Below, piece after piece: positions 4,512 to 44,638 of a DNA stretch of 64,000 nucleotides. Position 1 is the stretch's first letter. Each line of letters opens with the position of its first letter. Source of the DNA: Parcubacteria group bacterium (GTDB taxonomy: Bacteria > Patescibacteriota > Minisyncoccia > Phycocordibacterales > UBA2135). The notes under the pieces were generated by a model, which worked only from the letters and a program-made list of their open reading frames with translations, did no database searches and was not told the DNA's origin. The stretch covers positions 75,320 to 139,319 of the forward strand of contig JACPBB010000001.1 in NCBI GenBank assembly GCA_016180525.1, in the 5' to 3' direction. The translations under genes were made by a program, and so were the position numbers.

Positions 4512-5387
4512 TTAAAGATTGTTAAATAATTTTAGCCGTTTCTCAACAACTTCCTCAACCGCCCTCACCGCTTCTTTTATAAATTTATACGGAGCGATTT
4601 CGTCAGGATTTTCTTGAATTCCCATTTGTACTCCACTTTTATACGCCACACGAATTTCAGTATTAATATGCACGATTGAAATACCCGCCGCAATCGCATT
4701 TTTAAAATCTTCATCGGATATTCCCGAGCCGCCATGAAGCACGAGCGGCACCCCGCCCGCCACCCGCAATTCTTGTATACGAGAAATATTGAGGTTCGGA
4801 TTTTTACCGGATTTTAGCATTCCGTGTAAATTTCCCACAGCAGGAGCCGCAAGATCAACTCCTGTTTCCTTTATAAATTGTGAGAACTCTTTAGGTTTAG
4901 TGAGCATTTCATCTCTAACTGCCGCTCCTTCAGGAATTGCATCAAGAAGTTTTGAGGATGTACCTATGTAACCAAGCTCTCCCTCTACCAATATATGTTT
5001 ATTAACAGACCGAGCATATTCCACGCATTGTTTTGTAATCTTAATATTTTCAGCAAGCGGCAACTTCGTACCATCAAAAATAACCGCGTCATATCCGGCA
5101 TCCACCGCCTCTTTTACTCTCTCAAAAGAATACGTATGATCGGCATTTAAAAATACGGGGTAGTCAAATTCCTCACGCAGACTTTTTACGAGTGCCACTG
5201 CCTGCCGTACGCCGACAAAATCCCGCTCTCCCTCCGATGTGCCGATAATAACCGGCACATTCAATTTCCGCGCCGCATTAAAAATACCCCACAGAGTTTC
5301 AAGGTTTGAAATATTAAAATGGCCAATTGCCACCTTATTTTTTTCTGCATCAACAATTATCTCTCGAAGAGTTTTCATGTTATGCAT
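4512..5387 (-). CDS. fba: Class II fructose-1,6-bisphosphate aldolase
   Basis: GHFN...NADH...GELG...HG(G)SG motifs of class II FBP/tagatose-bisphosphate aldolases. Confidence 0.85.
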   Translation of the reverse strand: MHNMKTLREIIVDAEKNKVAIGHFNISNLETLWGIFNAARKLNVPVIIGTSEGERDFVGVRQAVALVKSLREEFDYPVFLNADHTYSFERVKEAVDAGYDAVIFDGTKLPLAENIKITKQCVEYARSVNKHILVEGELGYIGTSSKLLDAIPEGAAVRDEMLTKPKEFSQFIKETGVDLAAPAVGNLHGMLKSGKNPNLNISRIQELRVAGGVPLVLHGGSGISDEDFKNAIAAGISIVHINTEIRVAYKSGVQMGIQENPDEIAPYKFIKEAVRAVEEVVEKRLKLFNNL

Positions 5388-29778: not shown

Positions 29779-29807
29779 CTTGACAAACATATATTATTGT
29801 GATAAAA
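29779..29807 (+). promoter_or_regulatory. Near-consensus sigma70-type promoter TTGACA-17 bp-TAAAAT driving the 29900 ORF
   Basis: ttgacaaacatatattattgtgataaaat seen directly; GGGAGG RBS 7 nt before ATG at 29900. Confidence 0.6.
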
Positions 29808-29899
29808 TTAAAACGGTAAATGCTCAACTGCGTGAGCACATATTTTGTAATCATCTGAACAGCTCGCAGTAACTGTTCGTTTTATAGGGAGGTTTCCCC

Positions 29900-30442
29900 A
29901 TGAAGTGCTATACCGTGAAACGCTTCTACCCTCAACCCATGGTTGGTGGAGGAATCGAGATCACCCATGACAACAAATACGGAGACGCGGTGGTAATCGG
30001 CAAGGATTGGAACGATAAGCGAGGGTGGTACTCCGCCACCGCCCTCTGCAAGAAGTTCCCGCCCAAGACGGATGGCGGGGTGCTCTTCACCGCTCATCCG
30101 TTCTTCTGTCACCCCAAGAAGGAGGAGAGCAAACCATTCTGGGTTCTGCGAGACGAAAATGAGAAGCGCAAAGACGACACGCGCGCCCTCGTCGTCGTGG
30201 ACTGCTCGAACATTTCCGCTCACCACCTCAGACCTCACGGAATCTGGTGTACGCTTGAGGGACACATCGTCACCGTCGCCTCCGGTCGTACGATTAACGA
30301 TGACGGAGTCGTGTACGCGGAAGACCTCGTCATCATGTATCCGGGTTCATCCGCGTCCGTCCGATTCGTCGGAAACGAGCAGGAATACCTCCTCCGCTAC
30401 GACGACCCGAGCAAGGGGCCGCAACTCGAAGTGATGCCGTAA
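29900..30442 (+). CDS. Hypothetical protein (180 aa) encoded in a markedly GC-rich cassette
   Basis: strong promoter, RBS and terminator define the + strand ORF; no recognisable domain. Confidence 0.6.
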   Translation: MKCYTVKRFYPQPMVGGGIEITHDNKYGDAVVIGKDWNDKRGWYSATALCKKFPPKTDGGVLFTAHPFFCHPKKEESKPFWVLRDENEKRKDDTRALVVVDCSNISAHHLRPHGIWCTLEGHIVTVASGRTINDDGVVYAEDLVIMYPGSSASVRFVGNEQEYLLRYDDPSKGPQLEVMP

Positions 30443-30470
30443 CCGGCATTAACACGCCACTATCGCCTTC

Positions 30471-30504
30471 AGAGGCGACTCGCAAGAGTCGCCTCTTCTT
30501 TTTT
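30471..30504. terminator. Intrinsic terminator AGAGGCGACTC-gcaa-GAGTCGCCTCT + T-run
   Basis: seen directly. Confidence 0.65.
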
Positions 30505-36520: not shown

Positions 36521-37063
36521 ATGGTGAAAATACTTCAAAAAGATGAAGGGGGGCTACGAGAAATTTCTAAGCCCGTGCCCATCGGCAATATTGATACTCC
36601 GCGCATCCAAAAAATAATCGCGGATATGAAAAAGGCAATGCATGGTGAGGATGATGCAGTGGCAATTGCCGCTCCACAAATCGGAGTGTTACTTCGTATA
36701 TTTATAGTATCTGGAAAAGTGTTTCTTTCAAAAGAAGAGATTGCAAAAAAAGAGGAGATAAAAAACCTGCCACCGGACTTGGTTTTTATAAATCCTGAAC
36801 TTTTAAGGTGCTCAAAAAAAGAAAAGTGGACTGAAGAAGGATGTTTGTCGGTGCGATGGCTCTATGGAGAAGTGAGGCGAAGTGAAAAAGCAACTGTTCG
36901 CGCGTATGATGAGAGTGGAAAATTATTTACCAGAGGAGCAAGCGGTATCCTCGCGCAAGTTTTTCAGCACGAGATAGAACACTTAGACGGAAAATTATTT
37001 ACTGACAAGGCGCGTAACATCCAAAACATTCCTCCAGAAAAAAACTTGACAAAAAGAAGGTAA
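36521..37063 (+). CDS. def: Peptide deformylase
   Basis: GIAAPQIG-like (AIAAPQIG), EGCLS, QHEIEHLDG motifs. Confidence 0.9.
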   Translation: MVKILQKDEGGLREISKPVPIGNIDTPRIQKIIADMKKAMHGEDDAVAIAAPQIGVLLRIFIVSGKVFLSKEEIAKKEEIKNLPPDLVFINPELLRCSKKEKWTEEGCLSVRWLYGEVRRSEKATVRAYDESGKLFTRGASGILAQVFQHEIEHLDGKLFTDKARNIQNIPPEKNLTKRR

Positions 37064-37084
37064 TTTGATAATATATCATTTGAG

Positions 37085-37850
37085 CCTAGCCAACTCCGGG
37101 TTAGAAGTGTTCAAGCACGTTCTAACCAGGCTGGATGCCTCGCGTGGGGTCCAAAAAGGGCTCAGGACACGCGAGGCCGCGGCGGGGACCCGGACGCAGA
37201 CGCAAACCTTGTTGACGCAACTGAGGACGCTGAGCGCCCGGGACCCCGCTCCAGCCCTGTTCTTTAACGAATATCAAAGAATGAACCCCGGTGTTGCCTC
37301 GGAGTAAACCGAGCAACTACGCCGGGAGAAGTATTTCCCCCGCGGGAATACTTCCCGCCGAGATGCCTTTTTGTCTCGGTCTTTACTCCCCGCCCCGATG
37401 ACGAAAACGTCGGGGCTTTTCATTTTATATGCATTTAGTATACTAACAATGGCCGGCGTGGGAGATAGTGTTCTTCATGTCCCCCAACATCAACCACCAT
37501 ACACAACAAATGAATAGCACGTGGTGTGCGATGTTGCGCCTCGACTTGATCGAGCGGAGATCCATAGACACCCTTCCGGATACGCCCTTGCCCAACTTCG
37601 GCCGCATGGTTTACCCAGCGGCCTTTTTGTTTTTGAAAAAGTAGTGATACAATAATATATGCAAGCGCAGAGTATGTGAATCTTTCGCGCCTCCCGCACG
37701 CCCCGCCGCTCCCTTCCGTGCCTATGGCACCCGATGCAGGGACAACCTGATGGAGAGAAAAGCCTCCCTAAGGAATGTGCAGGAGCTCATTGGGATTCCT
37801 TCTCTGCGCTCGCACCACCGGAAAAGCTATTCGCTTTCCGGTTTTTTAAC
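37085..37850 (+). ncRNA. GC-rich highly structured non-coding locus with four intrinsic-terminator-like hairpins (T-runs at ~37368, ~37417, ~37624, ~37842); candidate structured RNA gene(s), family unassigned
   Basis: sharp GC increase versus flanks, many perfect 8-10 bp stems (e.g. GCCTCGCGTG/CACGCGAGGC), no convincing ORF. Confidence 0.3.
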
Positions 37851-38248
37851 ACTTCCGCGAAGTTGACTTTTTCCCAATACGAAGATATCTTACCTATAGA
37901 TAATAAAAAAATCATAGTGGGGAATCCGCGCATGAAAATACGTGCATCAAGTCTCCACACGCATGAAGGATTTATACTTGAATCTGAAGACCTAAGAGAA
38001 GCAGAAAAGTTAAAAATATTAGCGAGTTTTTTCAGAAACTACAGAGCAAGCACAGATGCCGGTCCGGATAACAAAAGTTCAGGAATACGAAAAATACTGA
38101 CAGAGGAAGATGGATCAAAAAATAGCAAACCCTCGCTTCATATCATTAAAGTAACTACTCCTAAAAAAACAAAAAACCCCCATCCTTTGGACACCAGATA
38201 GTACAACATACTGGTGTTTTTTATTGTTAAATATACTATTCTTAGTTT

Positions 38249-39121
38249 ATGAATCAAAAAACTAAATCCTTAACCCTAAACGCTAAACGCTTTAATTTCG
38301 TTTTCTTCGGCACCGATGATTTTTCGGTTATTGTTTTGGAAGAATTAAAAAAGGCAGGACTTATTCCCGCCCTCTTAGTCACTGCTCCAGACCGCAAAAA
38401 AGGCCGTGGTATGATTCTCACTCCCCCACCCGCAAAACTCTGGGCACAAGAAAACAACATTCCCCTCCTCCAACCAGAAAAATTAGACAAGGCCCTAGGC
38501 TCTAGGCTTCAGGCTCTAGGGGCAGATTTGTTTATCGTCGCGAGTTACGGAAACATTTTGCCGAAGGAGGTTTTAAAAATTCCAAAACATGGCACGCTCA
38601 ATGTGCACCCATCGCTTTTGCCACTCTTTCGCGGCCCCTCCCCTCTACAGCACCAAATACTTGAGAATGCAGAAGACGTGGGAGTCACCATTATGCTTAT
38701 AGATGAAAAAATTGACCACGGGCCAATCGTCGCGCAGGAAGTGTTGGGATTTAAGATTTCAGATTTAAGATTTAAGGATTTGCGGGATGAACTTGCGCAT
38801 CTAGGCGGGAAATTGCTTGCCAGCACCATTCCCGATTGGGTAGCAGGAAACATTGACCCGCAAGAGCAAGACCACGCCGCCGCTACATACACAAAAATGA
38901 TTACAAAAGAATCGGGGCTTATTGATATGCTACAGGAAAGCCCTGAGATGCTCTACAGAAAATGGAGGGCGTTTACCCCATGGCCCGGAGTGTACTTTTT
39001 CAAAAACAATAGGCGCATAAAAATCACCGACGCGGAATTAAAAAATGGATCATTTGTGATAAAAAAAGTAATTCCGGAGGGAAAAAGAGAAATTGATTAT
39101 TCAGCATATGGACAAAATTAA
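38249..39121 (+). CDS. fmt: Methionyl-tRNA formyltransferase, carrying in-frame heptamer-repeat insertions
   Basis: formyltransferase N-domain (SYGNILPKEVL...HPSLLP..RG) and C-terminal domain; def-fmt operon. Confidence 0.9.
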   Translation: MNQKTKSLTLNAKRFNFVFFGTDDFSVIVLEELKKAGLIPALLVTAPDRKKGRGMILTPPPAKLWAQENNIPLLQPEKLDKALGSRLQALGADLFIVASYGNILPKEVLKIPKHGTLNVHPSLLPLFRGPSPLQHQILENAEDVGVTIMLIDEKIDHGPIVAQEVLGFKISDLRFKDLRDELAHLGGKLLASTIPDWVAGNIDPQEQDHAAATYTKMITKESGLIDMLQESPEMLYRKWRAFTPWPGVYFFKNNRRIKITDAELKNGSFVIKKVIPEGKREIDYSAYGQN

Positions 39122-41705: not shown

Positions 41706-41777
41706 TCCGCGGTAGCTCAGCGGTAGAGCGGCTCCCTGTTAAGGAGATGGTCGCAGGTTCGATCCCTGCCCGCGGAG
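41706..41777 (+). tRNA. tRNA-Asn (anticodon GTT)
   Basis: Cloverleaf read manually: acceptor TCCGCGG/CCGCGGA, D-arm GCTC-AGCGGTA-GAGC, anticodon loop CTGTTAA, T-arm GCAGG-TTCGATC-CCTGC, discriminator G; CCA not encoded. Confidence 0.8.
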
Positions 41778-41863: not shown

Positions 41864-44638
41864 TTGTACCTGTCCCCATTTTTAAATTTGGCAGAGAAAT
41901 TCGTAAAAATATCATTAAAGGTACAATTAGAGACAAGAGGCAAAATTAGAACCAAAAAATATTGCATGATTTATTGCAACATAGAAGATCTAAGAAACGA
42001 AAGCGACGTAGAGCAAAAGCTCTGCGTTCCTCTTATTACGACTTCTTCAGAAAAAGGTTTAGGCTACTCAAAAAGTGATTATAGTTCAAAAAAGACTCTT
42101 AAAAAAATGGTCATTGGCAAAAGCGGGGACAAAAAATCTTATCGCCCAGATTTCATTACATTTATTCAAGGAACGCCAGTATTGGTAATTGAAGCAAAAA
42201 GCCCAGAGGAAGACCTGACAGAGGGATATAGAGAAGCGAGATTGTATGCGAACGAGTTAAATGCCATATACCCCTCCGGAATAAATCCATGTACGAAGGT
42301 TCTGGTGACAAATGGTAAAGAAATTTGGTACGGCAAAAATGATGAAAGAGAAGTCTTCGGTAAATTAACTTTTAAAGATATCAACATTTCCAACAAGAAA
42401 TTTACTGATCTGTTAGATTTTTGCAGCAAAAGTAAGATTAATAATGAATTAGAGACTGTTATAAAAAAAACGCGCAGTAAAAAAAATTTTAGTAAACCAA
42501 CTGCAATACTTGGAGGAAAAGCGAGTAGGGAGGAGGAACTTGGAAGCAATACTTTTGGTTCTGCTTTAATGTATGAATATCAGAGAATATTCAACCCTGA
42601 AACAAGAGAAGACAGGGTAGAAATTGTCAGAAATGCTTATATACCTTCTACGGGAATTGAAAAACACAAGAGCCCAATTCGAAAGCTAATTCTCGCTACG
42701 CTGCCACCCAGCTTAAAAAACACAACGAAAATCGAAAATACATCAAAACCACGAGAACTTTTGAGCAAGCTCCTGTCCCCCCAAAGGCTATCCAATCAGC
42801 TAATTTTATTAATTGGTAATGTTGGATCAGGAAAAACTACCTTTATTGATTATTTGAGAGAAATCGTATTGCCCACAGAGATAAAAAATAAGACAACGTG
42901 GGTATATATTGATTTAAACTTCGCACCCAACACGAAAGATGAAATTTATCCCTGGGTCCAAGAAAAAATAGTTGCTCAATTGAAAGATACACACCAAGAA
43001 CTTAACCTCGATCACATTGATGAATTGAAAAAGCTATATGCTGGTGATATAGAAGCATTTGAAATTGGTGAAGGAAGTTTACTAAGAGATGACCCAAAAG
43101 AATATAATAAATTGCTTGCCAAACTGATCCAAGAAGCAAAGGCAGACAAAAATAAAACCGCTAAAGCATACACAAGATATTTATGCGGCGATAGAGGAAA
43201 AACATTTATACTCATACTTGATAATGGAGATAAGAGAAACAAAGAAGATCAACTGCTGATGTTCGAAGTGGCCAGATGGGCAAAAGAAGAGTTTCGAGCT
43301 TTAATATTTTTGTCACTACGAGATGTCACATACGATTTACACAAAACGGAGCCTCCTCTTGATACTGTTATCAAGGATATGGCCTTTAGAATTGATCCAC
43401 CAGAATTAAGCCAAGTACTTTACAGAAGAGTCGCATACGCAATTCAGAACTCACCGTCAAGGGGAATCAAAATGACCTTAAATAATATGGTTGTGAATAT
43501 CTCAAAAAAAGAACAAGACATGTATTTAAAATGTATTCTAGAATCGCTTTATAATTCAAGTCCGTTCTCAAGAAAATTGATAAATGGGCTGGCTGGAAGG
43601 GATCTGCGAAGAGGGATAGAGATATTTATAACGTTTTGTAGAAGTGGACATATTTCTAATAAAGAAATATTGAAAATGCGTGTCTCAAATGGTTCCCACC
43701 CCCTTGAAGAACACATCGTCTTGAGGGCTTTGTTAAGGGGTAGTAAGCGATTTTATTCAGGGAGAGACTCTTATATTAAAAACTTATTTGAAAGCTACCC
43801 GGACGAAGAAGTAATCCCCGATCCATTTGTGAGGATGTCAATATTGAAATGGTTTCAAGAAAAAAAAGCGATCCGAGGTCCTAGTGATGCTAAGGGCTTC
43901 CATCCTATCGCTGATCTAGAAACAGATCTCCAATTGATTGGACATAATGAGAAAAGAGTACGAAGTGAAGTAGTAAACTTGCTAAGAGAGCGCTGCCTCA
44001 TAAGTGAAGCGCAAACAGAAGAAATTCTTGCGGAGACAGATCCAAAAGAAATAGAAAAAGGAATTGAGGATAATGATCTGATAAAAATAGCGCCCGCTGG
44101 CACAATTCACTTAGACCTGCTTCTGAATATTGTTTATTTGTCTGCCTGTGCCGAGGATATTTGGTATTGGAGCCATCAGACGGCAACAACTATAAAGGAA
44201 CGACTAACAAGAGAACAGGGGGTTGGACATTATTCGTTATCGACCAACTTAAAAAATTCATCGGACCTAATTGATTATTTAATTGATTATCAAAAAAAAT
44301 ACTACCCCAACAATGAGACTATCATTGACAAAGACATTCCACGCATAGACCTACAAACAATTAAAAAATTTGTCTCTGAGAGAGAACTAAAGGTACAAAA
44401 CAAGAACTCTGACTTGAAGAGGCGTTACCCTTTTAATAAAGAGCTTGTATGTTCTATTGAGAGGATTATCCTCAGGGCTGGAATCAGAGTACTCGTAGAG
44501 CCGGGCGTCTACGGCTTCATCATGAAAAGAGACATAAGGCAAGCAGAAAGTTTCCAGCAAGGTAAAAAAGTCAAAGTGCGAGTCAATGGTCTAGATGAAG
44601 ATCGTAGTACGCTTATTTTAAGTCTAATAGAAAAATGA
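41864..44638 (+). CDS. Large hypothetical protein: N-terminal PD-(D/E)xK nuclease (HsdR-N/Mrr-like) motif fused to a P-loop NTPase
   Basis: YRPDFITFIQGTPVLVIEAK (PD...ExK); LLIGNVGSGKTTFIDYL Walker A; FILILDNGD Walker B; ~500 aa further of unknown function. Confidence 0.6.
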   Translation: MYLSPFLNLAEKFVKISLKVQLETRGKIRTKKYCMIYCNIEDLRNESDVEQKLCVPLITTSSEKGLGYSKSDYSSKKTLKKMVIGKSGDKKSYRPDFITFIQGTPVLVIEAKSPEEDLTEGYREARLYANELNAIYPSGINPCTKVLVTNGKEIWYGKNDEREVFGKLTFKDINISNKKFTDLLDFCSKSKINNELETVIKKTRSKKNFSKPTAILGGKASREEELGSNTFGSALMYEYQRIFNPETREDRVEIVRNAYIPSTGIEKHKSPIRKLILATLPPSLKNTTKIENTSKPRELLSKLLSPQRLSNQLILLIGNVGSGKTTFIDYLREIVLPTEIKNKTTWVYIDLNFAPNTKDEIYPWVQEKIVAQLKDTHQELNLDHIDELKKLYAGDIEAFEIGEGSLLRDDPKEYNKLLAKLIQEAKADKNKTAKAYTRYLCGDRGKTFILILDNGDKRNKEDQLLMFEVARWAKEEFRALIFLSLRDVTYDLHKTEPPLDTVIKDMAFRIDPPELSQVLYRRVAYAIQNSPSRGIKMTLNNMVVNISKKEQDMYLKCILESLYNSSPFSRKLINGLAGRDLRRGIEIFITFCRSGHISNKEILKMRVSNGSHPLEEHIVLRALLRGSKRFYSGRDSYIKNLFESYPDEEVIPDPFVRMSILKWFQEKKAIRGPSDAKGFHPIADLETDLQLIGHNEKRVRSEVVNLLRERCLISEAQTEEILAETDPKEIEKGIEDNDLIKIAPAGTIHLDLLLNIVYLSACAEDIWYWSHQTATTIKERLTREQGVGHYSLSTNLKNSSDLIDYLIDYQKKYYPNNETIIDKDIPRIDLQTIKKFVSERELKVQNKNSDLKRRYPFNKELVCSIERIILRAGIRVLVEPGVYGFIMKRDIRQAESFQQGKKVKVRVNGLDEDRSTLILSLIEK

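Follow-up and report, generated by a model that had tools for sequence, protein, structure and literature searches.

A new structured RNA family, probably transcribed on its own, in the def–fmt spacer of a few related Parcubacteria

Introduction

What occupies the long GC-rich gap between def and fmt in the genome of an uncultivated Parcubacteria group bacterium? In the 64,000-nucleotide stretch analyzed here, hereafter the window (positions 75,320 to 139,319 of contig JACPBB010000001.1, assembly GCA_016180525.1), the genes for peptide deformylase and methionyl-tRNA formyltransferase lie on the same strand with a 1.2-kb spacer between them. An original prediction, made from the sequence letters without database searches, had described much of this spacer (37085–37850) as an unassigned, hairpin-dense noncoding locus that might hold a divergent or novel structured RNA, or tandem small RNAs. 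Unless a relative is named, coordinates below are those of the window, in which the two flanking genes are:

36521–37063, + strand: def, peptide deformylase (Pfam PF01327)
38249–39121, + strand: fmt, methionyl-tRNA formyltransferase (PF00551/PF02911)

Our analysis resolves most of the intervening DNA into three units, and the first of them, unit A, appears from its sequence to be a genuine gene for a noncoding RNA (ncRNA) of ~345 nt whose family is absent from RNA databases. The reading that we favor, and hold to be probable, is that unit A, encoded on the + strand, represents a new family of structured RNA that is transcribed independently and acts in trans. Only a few related uncultivated Parcubacteria, forming a very small clade, share the family.

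Results

The def–fmt spacer of the window is a lineage-specific insertion

In seven relatives whose Def proteins are 52–71% identical to that of the window (L001–L003, L010, L012, L015, and L163; relatives are referred to by such locus numbers throughout), def directly abuts fmt, with the two genes 0–70 nt apart or overlapping. Because the pair is adjacent in most relatives, the block that parts them in the window (37.08–38.22 kb) is a lineage-specific insertion into an otherwise tightly coupled def–fmt pair.

The block stands out in composition much as the original prediction had it: GC content jumps directly 3′ of def, from ~0.40 within the gene to 0.60 at 37100–37300, and the highest 150-nt GC value of the entire window (0.667, vs. 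a mean of 0.426) falls at 37065–37352. The three perfect stems quoted in that prediction are likewise all present, and a repeat finder lists them as I12 (37096–37106/37120–37130), I14 (37137–37146/37168–37177), and I16 (37328–37338/37344–37354); the same program found neither a repeat array nor a repeat family within the block. Three units, A to C, can be delimited; in each, an AT-rich promoter-like box comes first, a GC-rich body follows, and a hairpin with a T-run closes the unit. We infer the start of unit A from the −10 box of its promoter and its end from its terminator. The minimum free energy (MFE) of 37080–37430 is −162.6 kcal/mol, compared with −119.3 ± 5.6 kcal/mol for shuffled versions (z = −7.8; here and below, fold z-scores compare the MFE with that of dinucleotide shuffles of the same stretch).

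Homologs of unit A occupy the same site in related genomes

Five other Parcubacteria contigs carry homologs of unit A between def and fmt. One of them (L008, Def 71% identical to that of the window in the database search) contains one complete unit of ~250 nt, another (L011, 66%) has two tandem modules, and three (L009, 72%; L013, 79%; L162, 75%) retain the promoter and the 5′ part of the RNA before the contig ends, so that, with the window, three genomes supply four complete modules and the other three supply one fragment each. In local alignments, the window copy (winA) is significantly similar to the L008 unit (z = 4.9) and to the first (L011m1; z = 5.1) and second (L011m2; z = 8.3) L011 modules. 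The covariance model R1, for which the two L011 modules served as the only seed, finds the window copy at 37244–37402 with 34.7 bits (E = 4e-8), its sole significant match in the 64 kb with filters off. In a tree of Def proteins, the window, L013, L162, L009, and L008 form one clade, and L011 lies outside it, beside L014, whose spacer we describe below.

The family looks rare. No second copy was found in 135 kb of candidate phyla radiation (CPR) DNA, and a Def-based scan of a genome collection returned just 52%-identical relatives without the element.

Four contigs end at or inside the RNA locus (L007 at 3748, L009 at 3505, L013 at 861, and L162 at 863), two of them right at the junction motif J introduced below. 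These ends may be trivial, two of the four being very low-coverage short contigs; a repeat, strain variation, or poor sequencing of GC-rich structured DNA could also produce them.

A shared architecture of a three-way junction, a single-stranded junction, and 3′ hairpins

The features of the window copy, from promoter to terminator, are as follows:

37046–37074, + strand: putative promoter of unit A, with TTGACA (37046–37051), a 17-nt spacer, and the TG-extended −10 element TGATAATAT (37066–37074)
37082–37426, + strand: unit A, predicted structured ncRNA of ~345 nt, indicated by its MFE, its homologs, and the R1 match
37096–37130, + strand: P0, 5′ hairpin CCGGGUUAGAAGUG...CGUUCUAACCAGG (stem I12), in the window copy only
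37129–37256, + strand: 5′ domain, in which P1 (GGCUGGA, 37129–37135/UCCAGCC, 37250–37256) closes a three-way junction with P2 and P3
37137–37177, + strand: P2, hairpin of the three-way junction
37179–37249, + strand: P3, hairpin of the three-way junction
37259–37286, + strand: J, single-stranded junction with GUUCUUU (37259–37265), a 14-nt insertion, AUG (37281–37283), and 3 nt leading to P4
37287–37326, + strand: P4, CCCGGUGU (37287–37294) paired with ACGCCGGG (37319–37326) over 8 bp, with an inner hairpin
37328–37357, + strand: window-specific hairpin GAAGUAUUUCC/GGGAAUACUUC (stem I16)
37358–37379, + strand: H1, conserved internal hairpin CCGAGA-UGCCUUUUUG-UCUCGG
37393–37426, + strand: terminator of unit A, CCCCGAUG-ACGAAAAC-GUCGGGG plus CUUUUCAUUUU, preceded by the second YCCCR box (37386–37392)

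Across the family, these elements follow one order: the P1 three-way junction with its variable GC-rich hairpins, then GYUCUUU, AUG, P4, and a GAAUA-type tail, after which come a YCCCR box with H1, a spacer, and a further YCCCR box with the terminator. We derived this architecture from an anchored manual alignment, MAFFT, and an Infernal alignment; the MAFFT alignments (A1–A3) were inadequate for P1, P4, and H1, for which the anchored and Infernal alignments were used instead. In family members, the window included, P1 encloses two GC-rich hairpins and ends 1–3 nt ahead of GYUCUUU. None of the four complete modules departs from GYUCUUU or AUG, and all of them have exactly 3 nt between AUG and P4.

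Three elements are particular to the window copy. The 14-nt insertion after GUUCUUU occurs nowhere else in the family, and P0 is missing in L008, L009, L011, and L162, where P1 lies near the predicted start (beginning 3–9 nt into the sequence extracted downstream of the −10 box). The third is the hairpin at 37328–37357, whose 3′ half (GGAAUACUUCCCG, 37344–37357) is at the same time the conserved segment of tail and first YCCCR box, which Infernal aligns to AGAAUAUGCCCCA in L011 and AGAAUGCCCA in L008.

In L011, a ~130-nt long-range inverted repeat (CCCGUUAGAAGUCGCGGACG ... CCGCGUCCUACUUCUAACGGG; L011 positions 5087–5221) ends 4 nt before the fmt start codon, and its core, GUUAGAAG, also builds P0 of the window (37096–37130). 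This sharing could reflect a small shared repeat element or a coincidence.

Base pairing is maintained while the sequence diverges

In the anchored alignment, the strands of P1, P4, H1, and the terminator helix T remain complementary in every member even where the sequence has changed. P1, paired in six sequences, includes compensatory variants: it reads GGCUGGA/UCCAGCC in the window and L011, GGCUUGG/CCAAGCC in L162, GUGGC/GCCGC in L008, and GUGGC/GCCAU in L009. Under an anchored-helix null, P1 has p = 0.001–0.05 in four independent lineages (7 bp and p = 0.0014 in the window), and P4 has p = 0.03–0.12 per lineage. By the anchored alignment, positions 2–5 of P4 vary among C-G, U-A, A-U, and G-U in winA, L008, and L011, and positions 3–6 of H1 among G-C, A-U, and G-U, including two-sided changes that keep the pairing (CCGGGG/CCUCGG in L008, CCAAGACA/UGUCUUGG in L011). 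In the Infernal alignment, 97.9% of cells pair, vs. 30%–51% in slid registers, 4 of 16 pairs show changes on both sides, and RNAalifold recovers the same pairs. Even the close pair L008 and L009 differ by an A-U to G-C change in P2, a G-C to U-A change in P3, and wobble-preserving changes in P1.

The original prediction had named absence or variability in relatives without covariation as the pattern that would speak against an RNA. Only part of that pattern is seen, in that the element is absent in several close relatives and covaries where it is present. Structure is kept while primary sequence diverges, over a range of 64%–79% Def identity, and this therefore points to selection on RNA structure. 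Three features place unit A on the + strand: its promoter, the T-runs, and the G·U pairs of P1, P4, H1, and T.

A conserved promoter box and a terminator mark the predicted limits of unit A

The promoter-like site of unit A is the best-scoring promoter match in the region; it has an A-tract in front and overlaps the last codons and the stop codon (37061–37063) of def. The window copy fits the box cTTGACAAA..ATTTGnTAAnAT with 0 mismatches, and the box is kept upstream of the RNA in L008, L009, L011, L013, and L162. In the window and these five relatives, TTGACAAA..ATTTGnTAAnAT thus sits between def and fmt, on their strand, and an A-tract precedes it in most of the six. The conservation of an A-tract followed by TTGACA-17-TGnTAATAT would fit a highly expressed stable RNA.

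Allowing up to 3 mismatches, the box TTGACAAA-N9-ATTTGnTAnnAT occurs 5 times on the + strand of the window (at 29780, 37046, 45667, 54234, and 60719), vs. 0.8 times expected, and appears to be the strong-promoter consensus of this genome, with a TG-extended −10 element.

Four hairpins with T-runs, ending near 37372, 37428, 37634, and 37847, had originally been counted. We find three terminator-like stems followed by T-runs (37393–37415, 37600–37623, and 37818–37841), which account for the last three of these; the hairpin near 37372 is H1, whose T-run lies inside the loop with none 3′ of the stem. A strict terminator scanner lists just one of the three sites (37392–37416), the other two stems carrying a bulge or mismatch, and the number that it reports for the region (5) does not exceed chance expectation (2.4 ± 1.4); the terminator calls rest on inspection and homology, not on the scanner. 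CCCA-CCGG...CCGG-U6 terminators homologous to that of unit A are present in L008 and L011. On the reading that we favor, transcription of unit A would begin at its own near-consensus promoter and stop at this intrinsic terminator.

No known RNA family accounts for the locus

At gathering score, Rfam 15 matches nothing in the def–fmt region, and its sole match in the whole window is tRNA-Asn at 41706. At E ≤ 10, the region and the L008, L011, and L014 loci yield sub-threshold chance matches only (a suhB/mmgR terminator-like match of 27.7 bits vs. a gathering threshold of 41, and miRNA-like palindromes). ARAGORN finds no transfer-messenger RNA (tmRNA) in the window, nor does Rfam at E ≤ 10. In the window, L008, and L011, the RNase P RNA models (A/B) give no match at gathering score or at E ≤ 10, those for signal recognition particle (SRP) RNA and 6S RNA give no Rfam match, and the tetrahydrofolate (THF and THF-II), ZTP, and S-adenosylmethionine (SAM) riboswitch models none at E ≤ 10. 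The T-box model, considered because the invariant AUG adjoins fmt, has no match at E ≤ 10 in three members. The by-eye comparison in the original prediction, which could fit the locus to neither tmRNA, RNase P RNA, nor SRP RNA, was therefore sound, and the covariance-model check that it had proposed identifies no known family as an explanation; its suggestion of a divergent member of one of these classes finds no support from either Rfam at E ≤ 10 or ARAGORN. BLAST searches against phages and plasmids came back empty, and our literature searches turned up no RNA motif linked to def, to fmt, or to CPR bacteria.

That one of the units is an extremely divergent 6S RNA, RNase P RNA, tmRNA, or SRP RNA we regard as barely credible. 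A strong promoter is what one would expect of a stable RNA, CPR genomes are divergent, the 64-kb window contains no canonical copies, and unit C, at ~188 nt with a long closing stem, is about the size of 6S RNA. Yet the profile searches and ARAGORN are negative in the window, the former also in two homologs, and the predicted folds are branched rather than a 6S-like rod with a central bubble. The element is moreover absent, duplicated (L011), or replaced (L014) in relatives, behavior unfit for an essential single-copy RNA.

We also considered RNAs that work with a partner. Arrays of the TIGR-Tas type (PMC12045711) are unlike units of 190–345 nt, and there is no Tas-like gene nearby. The omega-RNA of TnpB/IscB, the msr-msd RNA of retrons, CRISPR/tracrRNA, and the ncRNA of DRT systems were set aside, as there is no partner gene among the neighbors and no repeat array; PADLOC gives no match for the ORFs adjoining the units.

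Coding potential of the block

Could the units instead be small-protein genes or structured mRNAs, with a peptide starting at the invariant AUG or with the long open reading frame (ORF) over unit C as the product? We consider this very improbable. The AUG never varies among the four complete modules, but the frames that it opens (8, 33, 51, and 60 aa) share no peptide, no Shine–Dalgarno sequence precedes it (GUUCUUU is pyrimidine-rich), and the indels between members are not multiples of three; we therefore rejected a peptide from this start, whose length and sequence are unconserved. No frame of the block has a Pfam or PADLOC match.

The original statement that ORFs here are short and implausible needs qualification, since one long ORF of 155 aa (37734–38201) overlaps unit C and was also called by a gene caller on the Logan contig. 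Among 5.8 billion proteins, however, only its C-terminal 89 aa are matched, by an identical orphan, and the N-terminal 66 residues have no homolog; NCBI annotates just the 89-aa part. We accordingly rejected the 155-aa ORF as a conserved protein. A possible 37-aa ORF behind a GGGAGA box in the L014 cassette is a further point for small proteins.

The 89-aa part forms an element of its own:

37932–38201, + strand: orphan lysine-rich ORF of 89 aa within the block (whole element 37932–38222)

A promoter-like site lies upstream of it (37863–37891), and a terminator-like hairpin, CACCAG...CUGGUG plus U6, follows (38192–38222). Its sole database match is the identical P0121, hypothetical protein HYT93_00585 of Parcubacteria group bacterium, and it belongs to no Pfam or PADLOC family. 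Some gene calls lengthen it to 155 aa, over unit C. Unit A itself is neither a housekeeping RNA of known class nor a protein-coding gene.

Units B and C, and turnover of cassettes at the def–fmt site

The two units downstream of unit A are:

37445–37634, + strand: unit B, weakly structured (z = −1.7 for 37445–37640)
37660–37847, + strand (by the terminator only): unit C, ~188 nt (z = −4.3 for 37655–37850)

Unit B has a promoter-like site (37417–37444, 9/12) and the terminator GGCCGCAUGG-UUUA-CCCAGCGGCC plus U5GU5 (37600–37634); within it, the J-like GUUCUUCAUG (37468–37477) is followed by 3 nt and a 7-bp hairpin, no more than a hint of the family junction. Unit C has a possible extended −10 element (TGATACAAT, 37645–37653), a closing stem of 12–13 bp (37660–37672/37802–37814, repeat I8), and the terminator CCGGAAAAGC...GCUUUCCGG plus U6 (37818–37847); it folds with z = −4.3 on the + strand vs. 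−6.5 on the − strand, and its assignment to the former is backed by the terminator alone. In local alignments, units B and C resemble neither unit A, nor each other, nor the L014 cassette (z ≤ 2.6). Neither R1 nor a second covariance model, R2, matches unit B; R1 also misses unit C, with which the best R2 overlap has 6.7 bits (E = 2.5). No relatives of either unit were detected, no relative's contig extending over B or C. At current power we thus reject the idea that B and C are diverged paralogs of A. Plausibly they are further promoter–structure–terminator cassettes specific to this genome, and they may represent orphan RNAs or else cassettes that have decayed or been acquired. As tandem small RNAs, the other suggestion of the original prediction, they are candidates only. 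The original proposal of a novel structured RNA holds for unit A, which combines same-locus homologs, compensatory pairs, and a conserved promoter and terminator with the absence of any Rfam, ARAGORN, or protein match, and has this support for unit A only.

The spacer varies from genome to genome. L014, whose Def is 86% identical to that of L011, carries an unrelated cassette at the same def–fmt site (L014 positions 560–985), GC-rich, structured (z = −4.2), with a promoter (TTGACT..TATAAT) and a terminator, and without a credible Rfam match at E ≤ 10. Across the group, the def–fmt spacer behaves as a site of cassette gain, loss, duplication, or replacement.

Such turnover raises the possibility that part of the block (mainly units B and C), or even the whole of it, is horizontally acquired or mobile GC-rich DNA that gathers in a permissive spacer and does nothing for the host. 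Each cassette would then carry its own promoter and terminator, and the hairpins would reflect base composition or the ends of elements. Cassette content does differ between close relatives: the window has three units plus an ORF in the spacer, L008 a single unit, L011 two modules, L014 the unrelated structured cassette, and L010 and L163 nothing; B and C are without relatives; another GC-rich orphan gene with the same type of promoter lies at 29.9 kb in the window; and the GUUAGAAG-containing inverted repeat recurs in P0 and beside fmt in L011. Against this, unit A has kept its position, promoter, architecture, and pairing through the range of Def identity given above in spite of sequence divergence, the block has no terminal inverted repeats, target-site duplication, or transposase, integrase, or reverse transcriptase gene, and there are no copies elsewhere in the 135 kb of CPR DNA or in phages and plasmids. 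We judge the mobile-DNA explanation unlikely for the block; a selfish or decaying cassette suits B and C better than A.

Free-standing RNA or leader of fmt

If unit A is the free-standing RNA that we favor, it would be an abundant, stable molecule of ~0.3 kb working in trans, and GYUCUUU, AUG, the GAAUA tail, and the YCCCR boxes would form its contact surface for a protein or RNA partner. We prefer action in trans because the promoter is of the strongest type in the genome, because two terminators, an ORF, and ~820 nt lie between unit A and fmt in the window, and because close relatives run fmt without such an element.

A number of observations weigh against this reading. The RNA is constantly oriented toward fmt, and L011 combines two modules with one terminator, both of which suggest a cis-acting leader instead of the proposed trans action. 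The reverse complement of unit A folds equally well, so that thermodynamics is uninformative on strand. The covariation statistics are thin, resting on the few complete modules and fragments enumerated above, and Infernal skipped P4 of the window as a local end, leaving the homology of that helix to position only. Under R1, the L008 unit is found full-length and in the right place with a mere 17.9 bits, and it is outscored by L032 (20.4 bits), a control locus picked for its chance presence of the J motif; the low L008 score is a limitation of the two-sequence seed. Scans of metagenome and viral collections with exact patterns, a blunt instrument for a sequence this variable, gave chance matches only. 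Finally, nothing is found at the def–fmt site of the close relatives L010 and L163. Since the element is missing there and swapped for an unrelated cassette in L014, it is dispensable.

Three scan patterns were discarded. CCAGCC-N2-5-GYTCTTTNAYG matched at least 120 viral contigs, all noise, which we reused as controls; a stricter pattern with CCCRCC had seven viral matches, all by chance; and pattern V, locally specific for the three full members, matched 20 metagenome contigs, all by chance in GC-rich coding DNA, and did not recover the L011 contig itself.

The alternative suggested by orientation and layout is that unit A acts in cis: as a leader of the riboswitch or attenuator kind, it would gate transcription into fmt through its terminator, with P1–P4 as the sensor and H1 plus terminator as the expression platform; its ligand would possibly be a one-carbon or folate compound, a methionine-related metabolite, or initiator tRNA. 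The RNA lies directly upstream of fmt in L008 (~40 nt) and L011 (~140 nt). In L011, def has its own terminator, leaving fmt behind the promoter and terminator of the RNA, and the two sensor-like modules share a single H1/terminator set, as in tandem-aptamer riboswitches. Furthermore, the invariant AUG of the junction lies beside genes that act on formylmethionine, a link that we infer only, and base-pairing small RNAs typically have a simpler architecture (PMC6429828).

A switch might operate through H1 and the terminator, in which H1a and Ta share a CCCACCGG box. The alternative pairing H1b:Ta reaches −7.9 kcal/mol in the window (p = 0.09) and −9.8 kcal/mol in L011m2 (p = 0.03), but in L008 it has −4.9 kcal/mol and is worse than 93% of shuffles (p = 0.93). 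Other observations also speak against a leader. The ~820 nt between unit A and fmt in the window include the terminators of B and C and an ORF with a terminator of its own, close relatives have fmt without the element, and the three-way junction lacks the conserved unpaired nucleotides typical of ligand pockets. A near-consensus promoter with an A-tract would be unusual for the gene of a low-abundance enzyme, and the T-box, THF, ZTP, and SAM models have no match. Overall, we consider a cis-acting leader, the main rival to our reading, rather unlikely.

A bolder form of the idea, a modular sensor RNA in which P1–P4 senses a metabolite or initiator tRNA and H1/terminator sets the level of fmt, or else a large RNA that forms a ribonucleoprotein (RNP), seems to us quite unlikely; within it, a new large RNP-forming RNA with amplifiable modules stands on an equal footing with the sensor.

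Other features of the window

By its protein matches, the organism falls within the Parcubacteria/Paceibacteria group of the CPR. The def/fmt pair has PriA upstream and a hibernation factor (HPF) downstream; a MurA-family gene and genes of unknown function are also among the neighbors.

At 29900–30442, a GC-rich gene (up to 0.61) encodes an orphan protein of 180 aa, with a ribosome-binding site (AGGGAGG), a strong promoter box (29780–29808), and a terminator-like hairpin (~30463–30500). We had considered this GC-rich island as a second RNA and rejected the idea, since the ribosome-binding site marks it as a protein gene. No Pfam or PADLOC family matches the protein, and the composition of the gene suggests horizontal acquisition.

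Farther downstream, 41864–44638 encodes a protein of 924 aa with an unusual domain combination: an HSDR_N-like N-terminus (type I restriction), AAA ATPase domains, and a C-terminal S1 RNA-binding domain. The gene adjoins tRNA-Asn(GUU) (41706–41777).

Discussion

How does unit A compare with known systems? The glycine riboswitch combines tandem aptamers with a single expression platform. L011 is similar in having two P1–P4 modules and one hairpin/terminator set upstream of fmt in the same orientation; the family differs from tandem-aptamer riboswitches in that no riboswitch model matches, the alternative pairing is not conserved, and there is no core that resembles a ligand pocket, and the window copy is ~820 nt and three terminators away from fmt.

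In small RNAs of the RsaE/RoxS type from low-GC bacteria, UCCC boxes pair with G-rich ribosome-binding sites. Unit A shares with them an apparently independent promoter-to-terminator organization and unpaired YCCCR boxes directly 5′ of hairpins, the terminator included. It is, however, 3–4 times larger and multi-domain, its boxes are CCCA/CCCG rather than UCCC in loops, and it has no Rfam match to this type. With abundant stable RNAs (6S, RNase P, tmRNA, and SRP), the units have in common a length of 190–350 nt, a very strong promoter, and a contrast in GC and structure with the genome, whereas the defining features of those RNAs were not found by Rfam or ARAGORN and the element is dispensable, duplicated, or replaced in relatives.

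The closest parallel lies in searches of GC-rich intergenic regions (IGRs). Long GC-rich IGRs in AT-rich bacterial genomes are enriched for structured ncRNAs, and ordinary base-pairing small RNAs rarely show this signature (GC-IGR/DIMPL; PMC6429828, PMC8723152, PMC11109978). Like the orphan ncRNA candidates from those studies, the def–fmt family lies in a long IGR, with a GC content far above that of a low-GC genome and with extensive conserved structure. It differs in that no published motif, as represented in Rfam 15, matches it, in that those papers mention no motif associated with def, fmt, or CPR bacteria, and in that it is confined to so small a clade. We therefore regard it as a new family within the bacterial structured ncRNA genes found as GC-rich intergenic islands (PMC6429828).

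CPR bacteria represent a large share of bacterial diversity, and almost nothing is known of their ncRNAs beyond the universal ones. The locus described here provides an RNA family that can be aligned and for which a promoter, a terminator, and a model of the secondary structure are defined, and it indicates that at least one clade of Parcubacteria keeps a large structured RNA under selection between two translation-initiation genes. Modular duplication combined with cassette turnover at a single site is unusual for bacterial RNA genes. Should unit A prove to be just a clade-restricted orphan RNA, it would still add to RNA family databases and prevent spurious ORF calls in this region. If the RNA controls fmt or binds a specific protein, it would pose a testable question of regulation in minimal-genome organisms, and if the sensor reading were true, the family would constitute a new riboswitch or tRNA-sensing leader over translation-initiation chemistry in ultra-small symbiotic bacteria.

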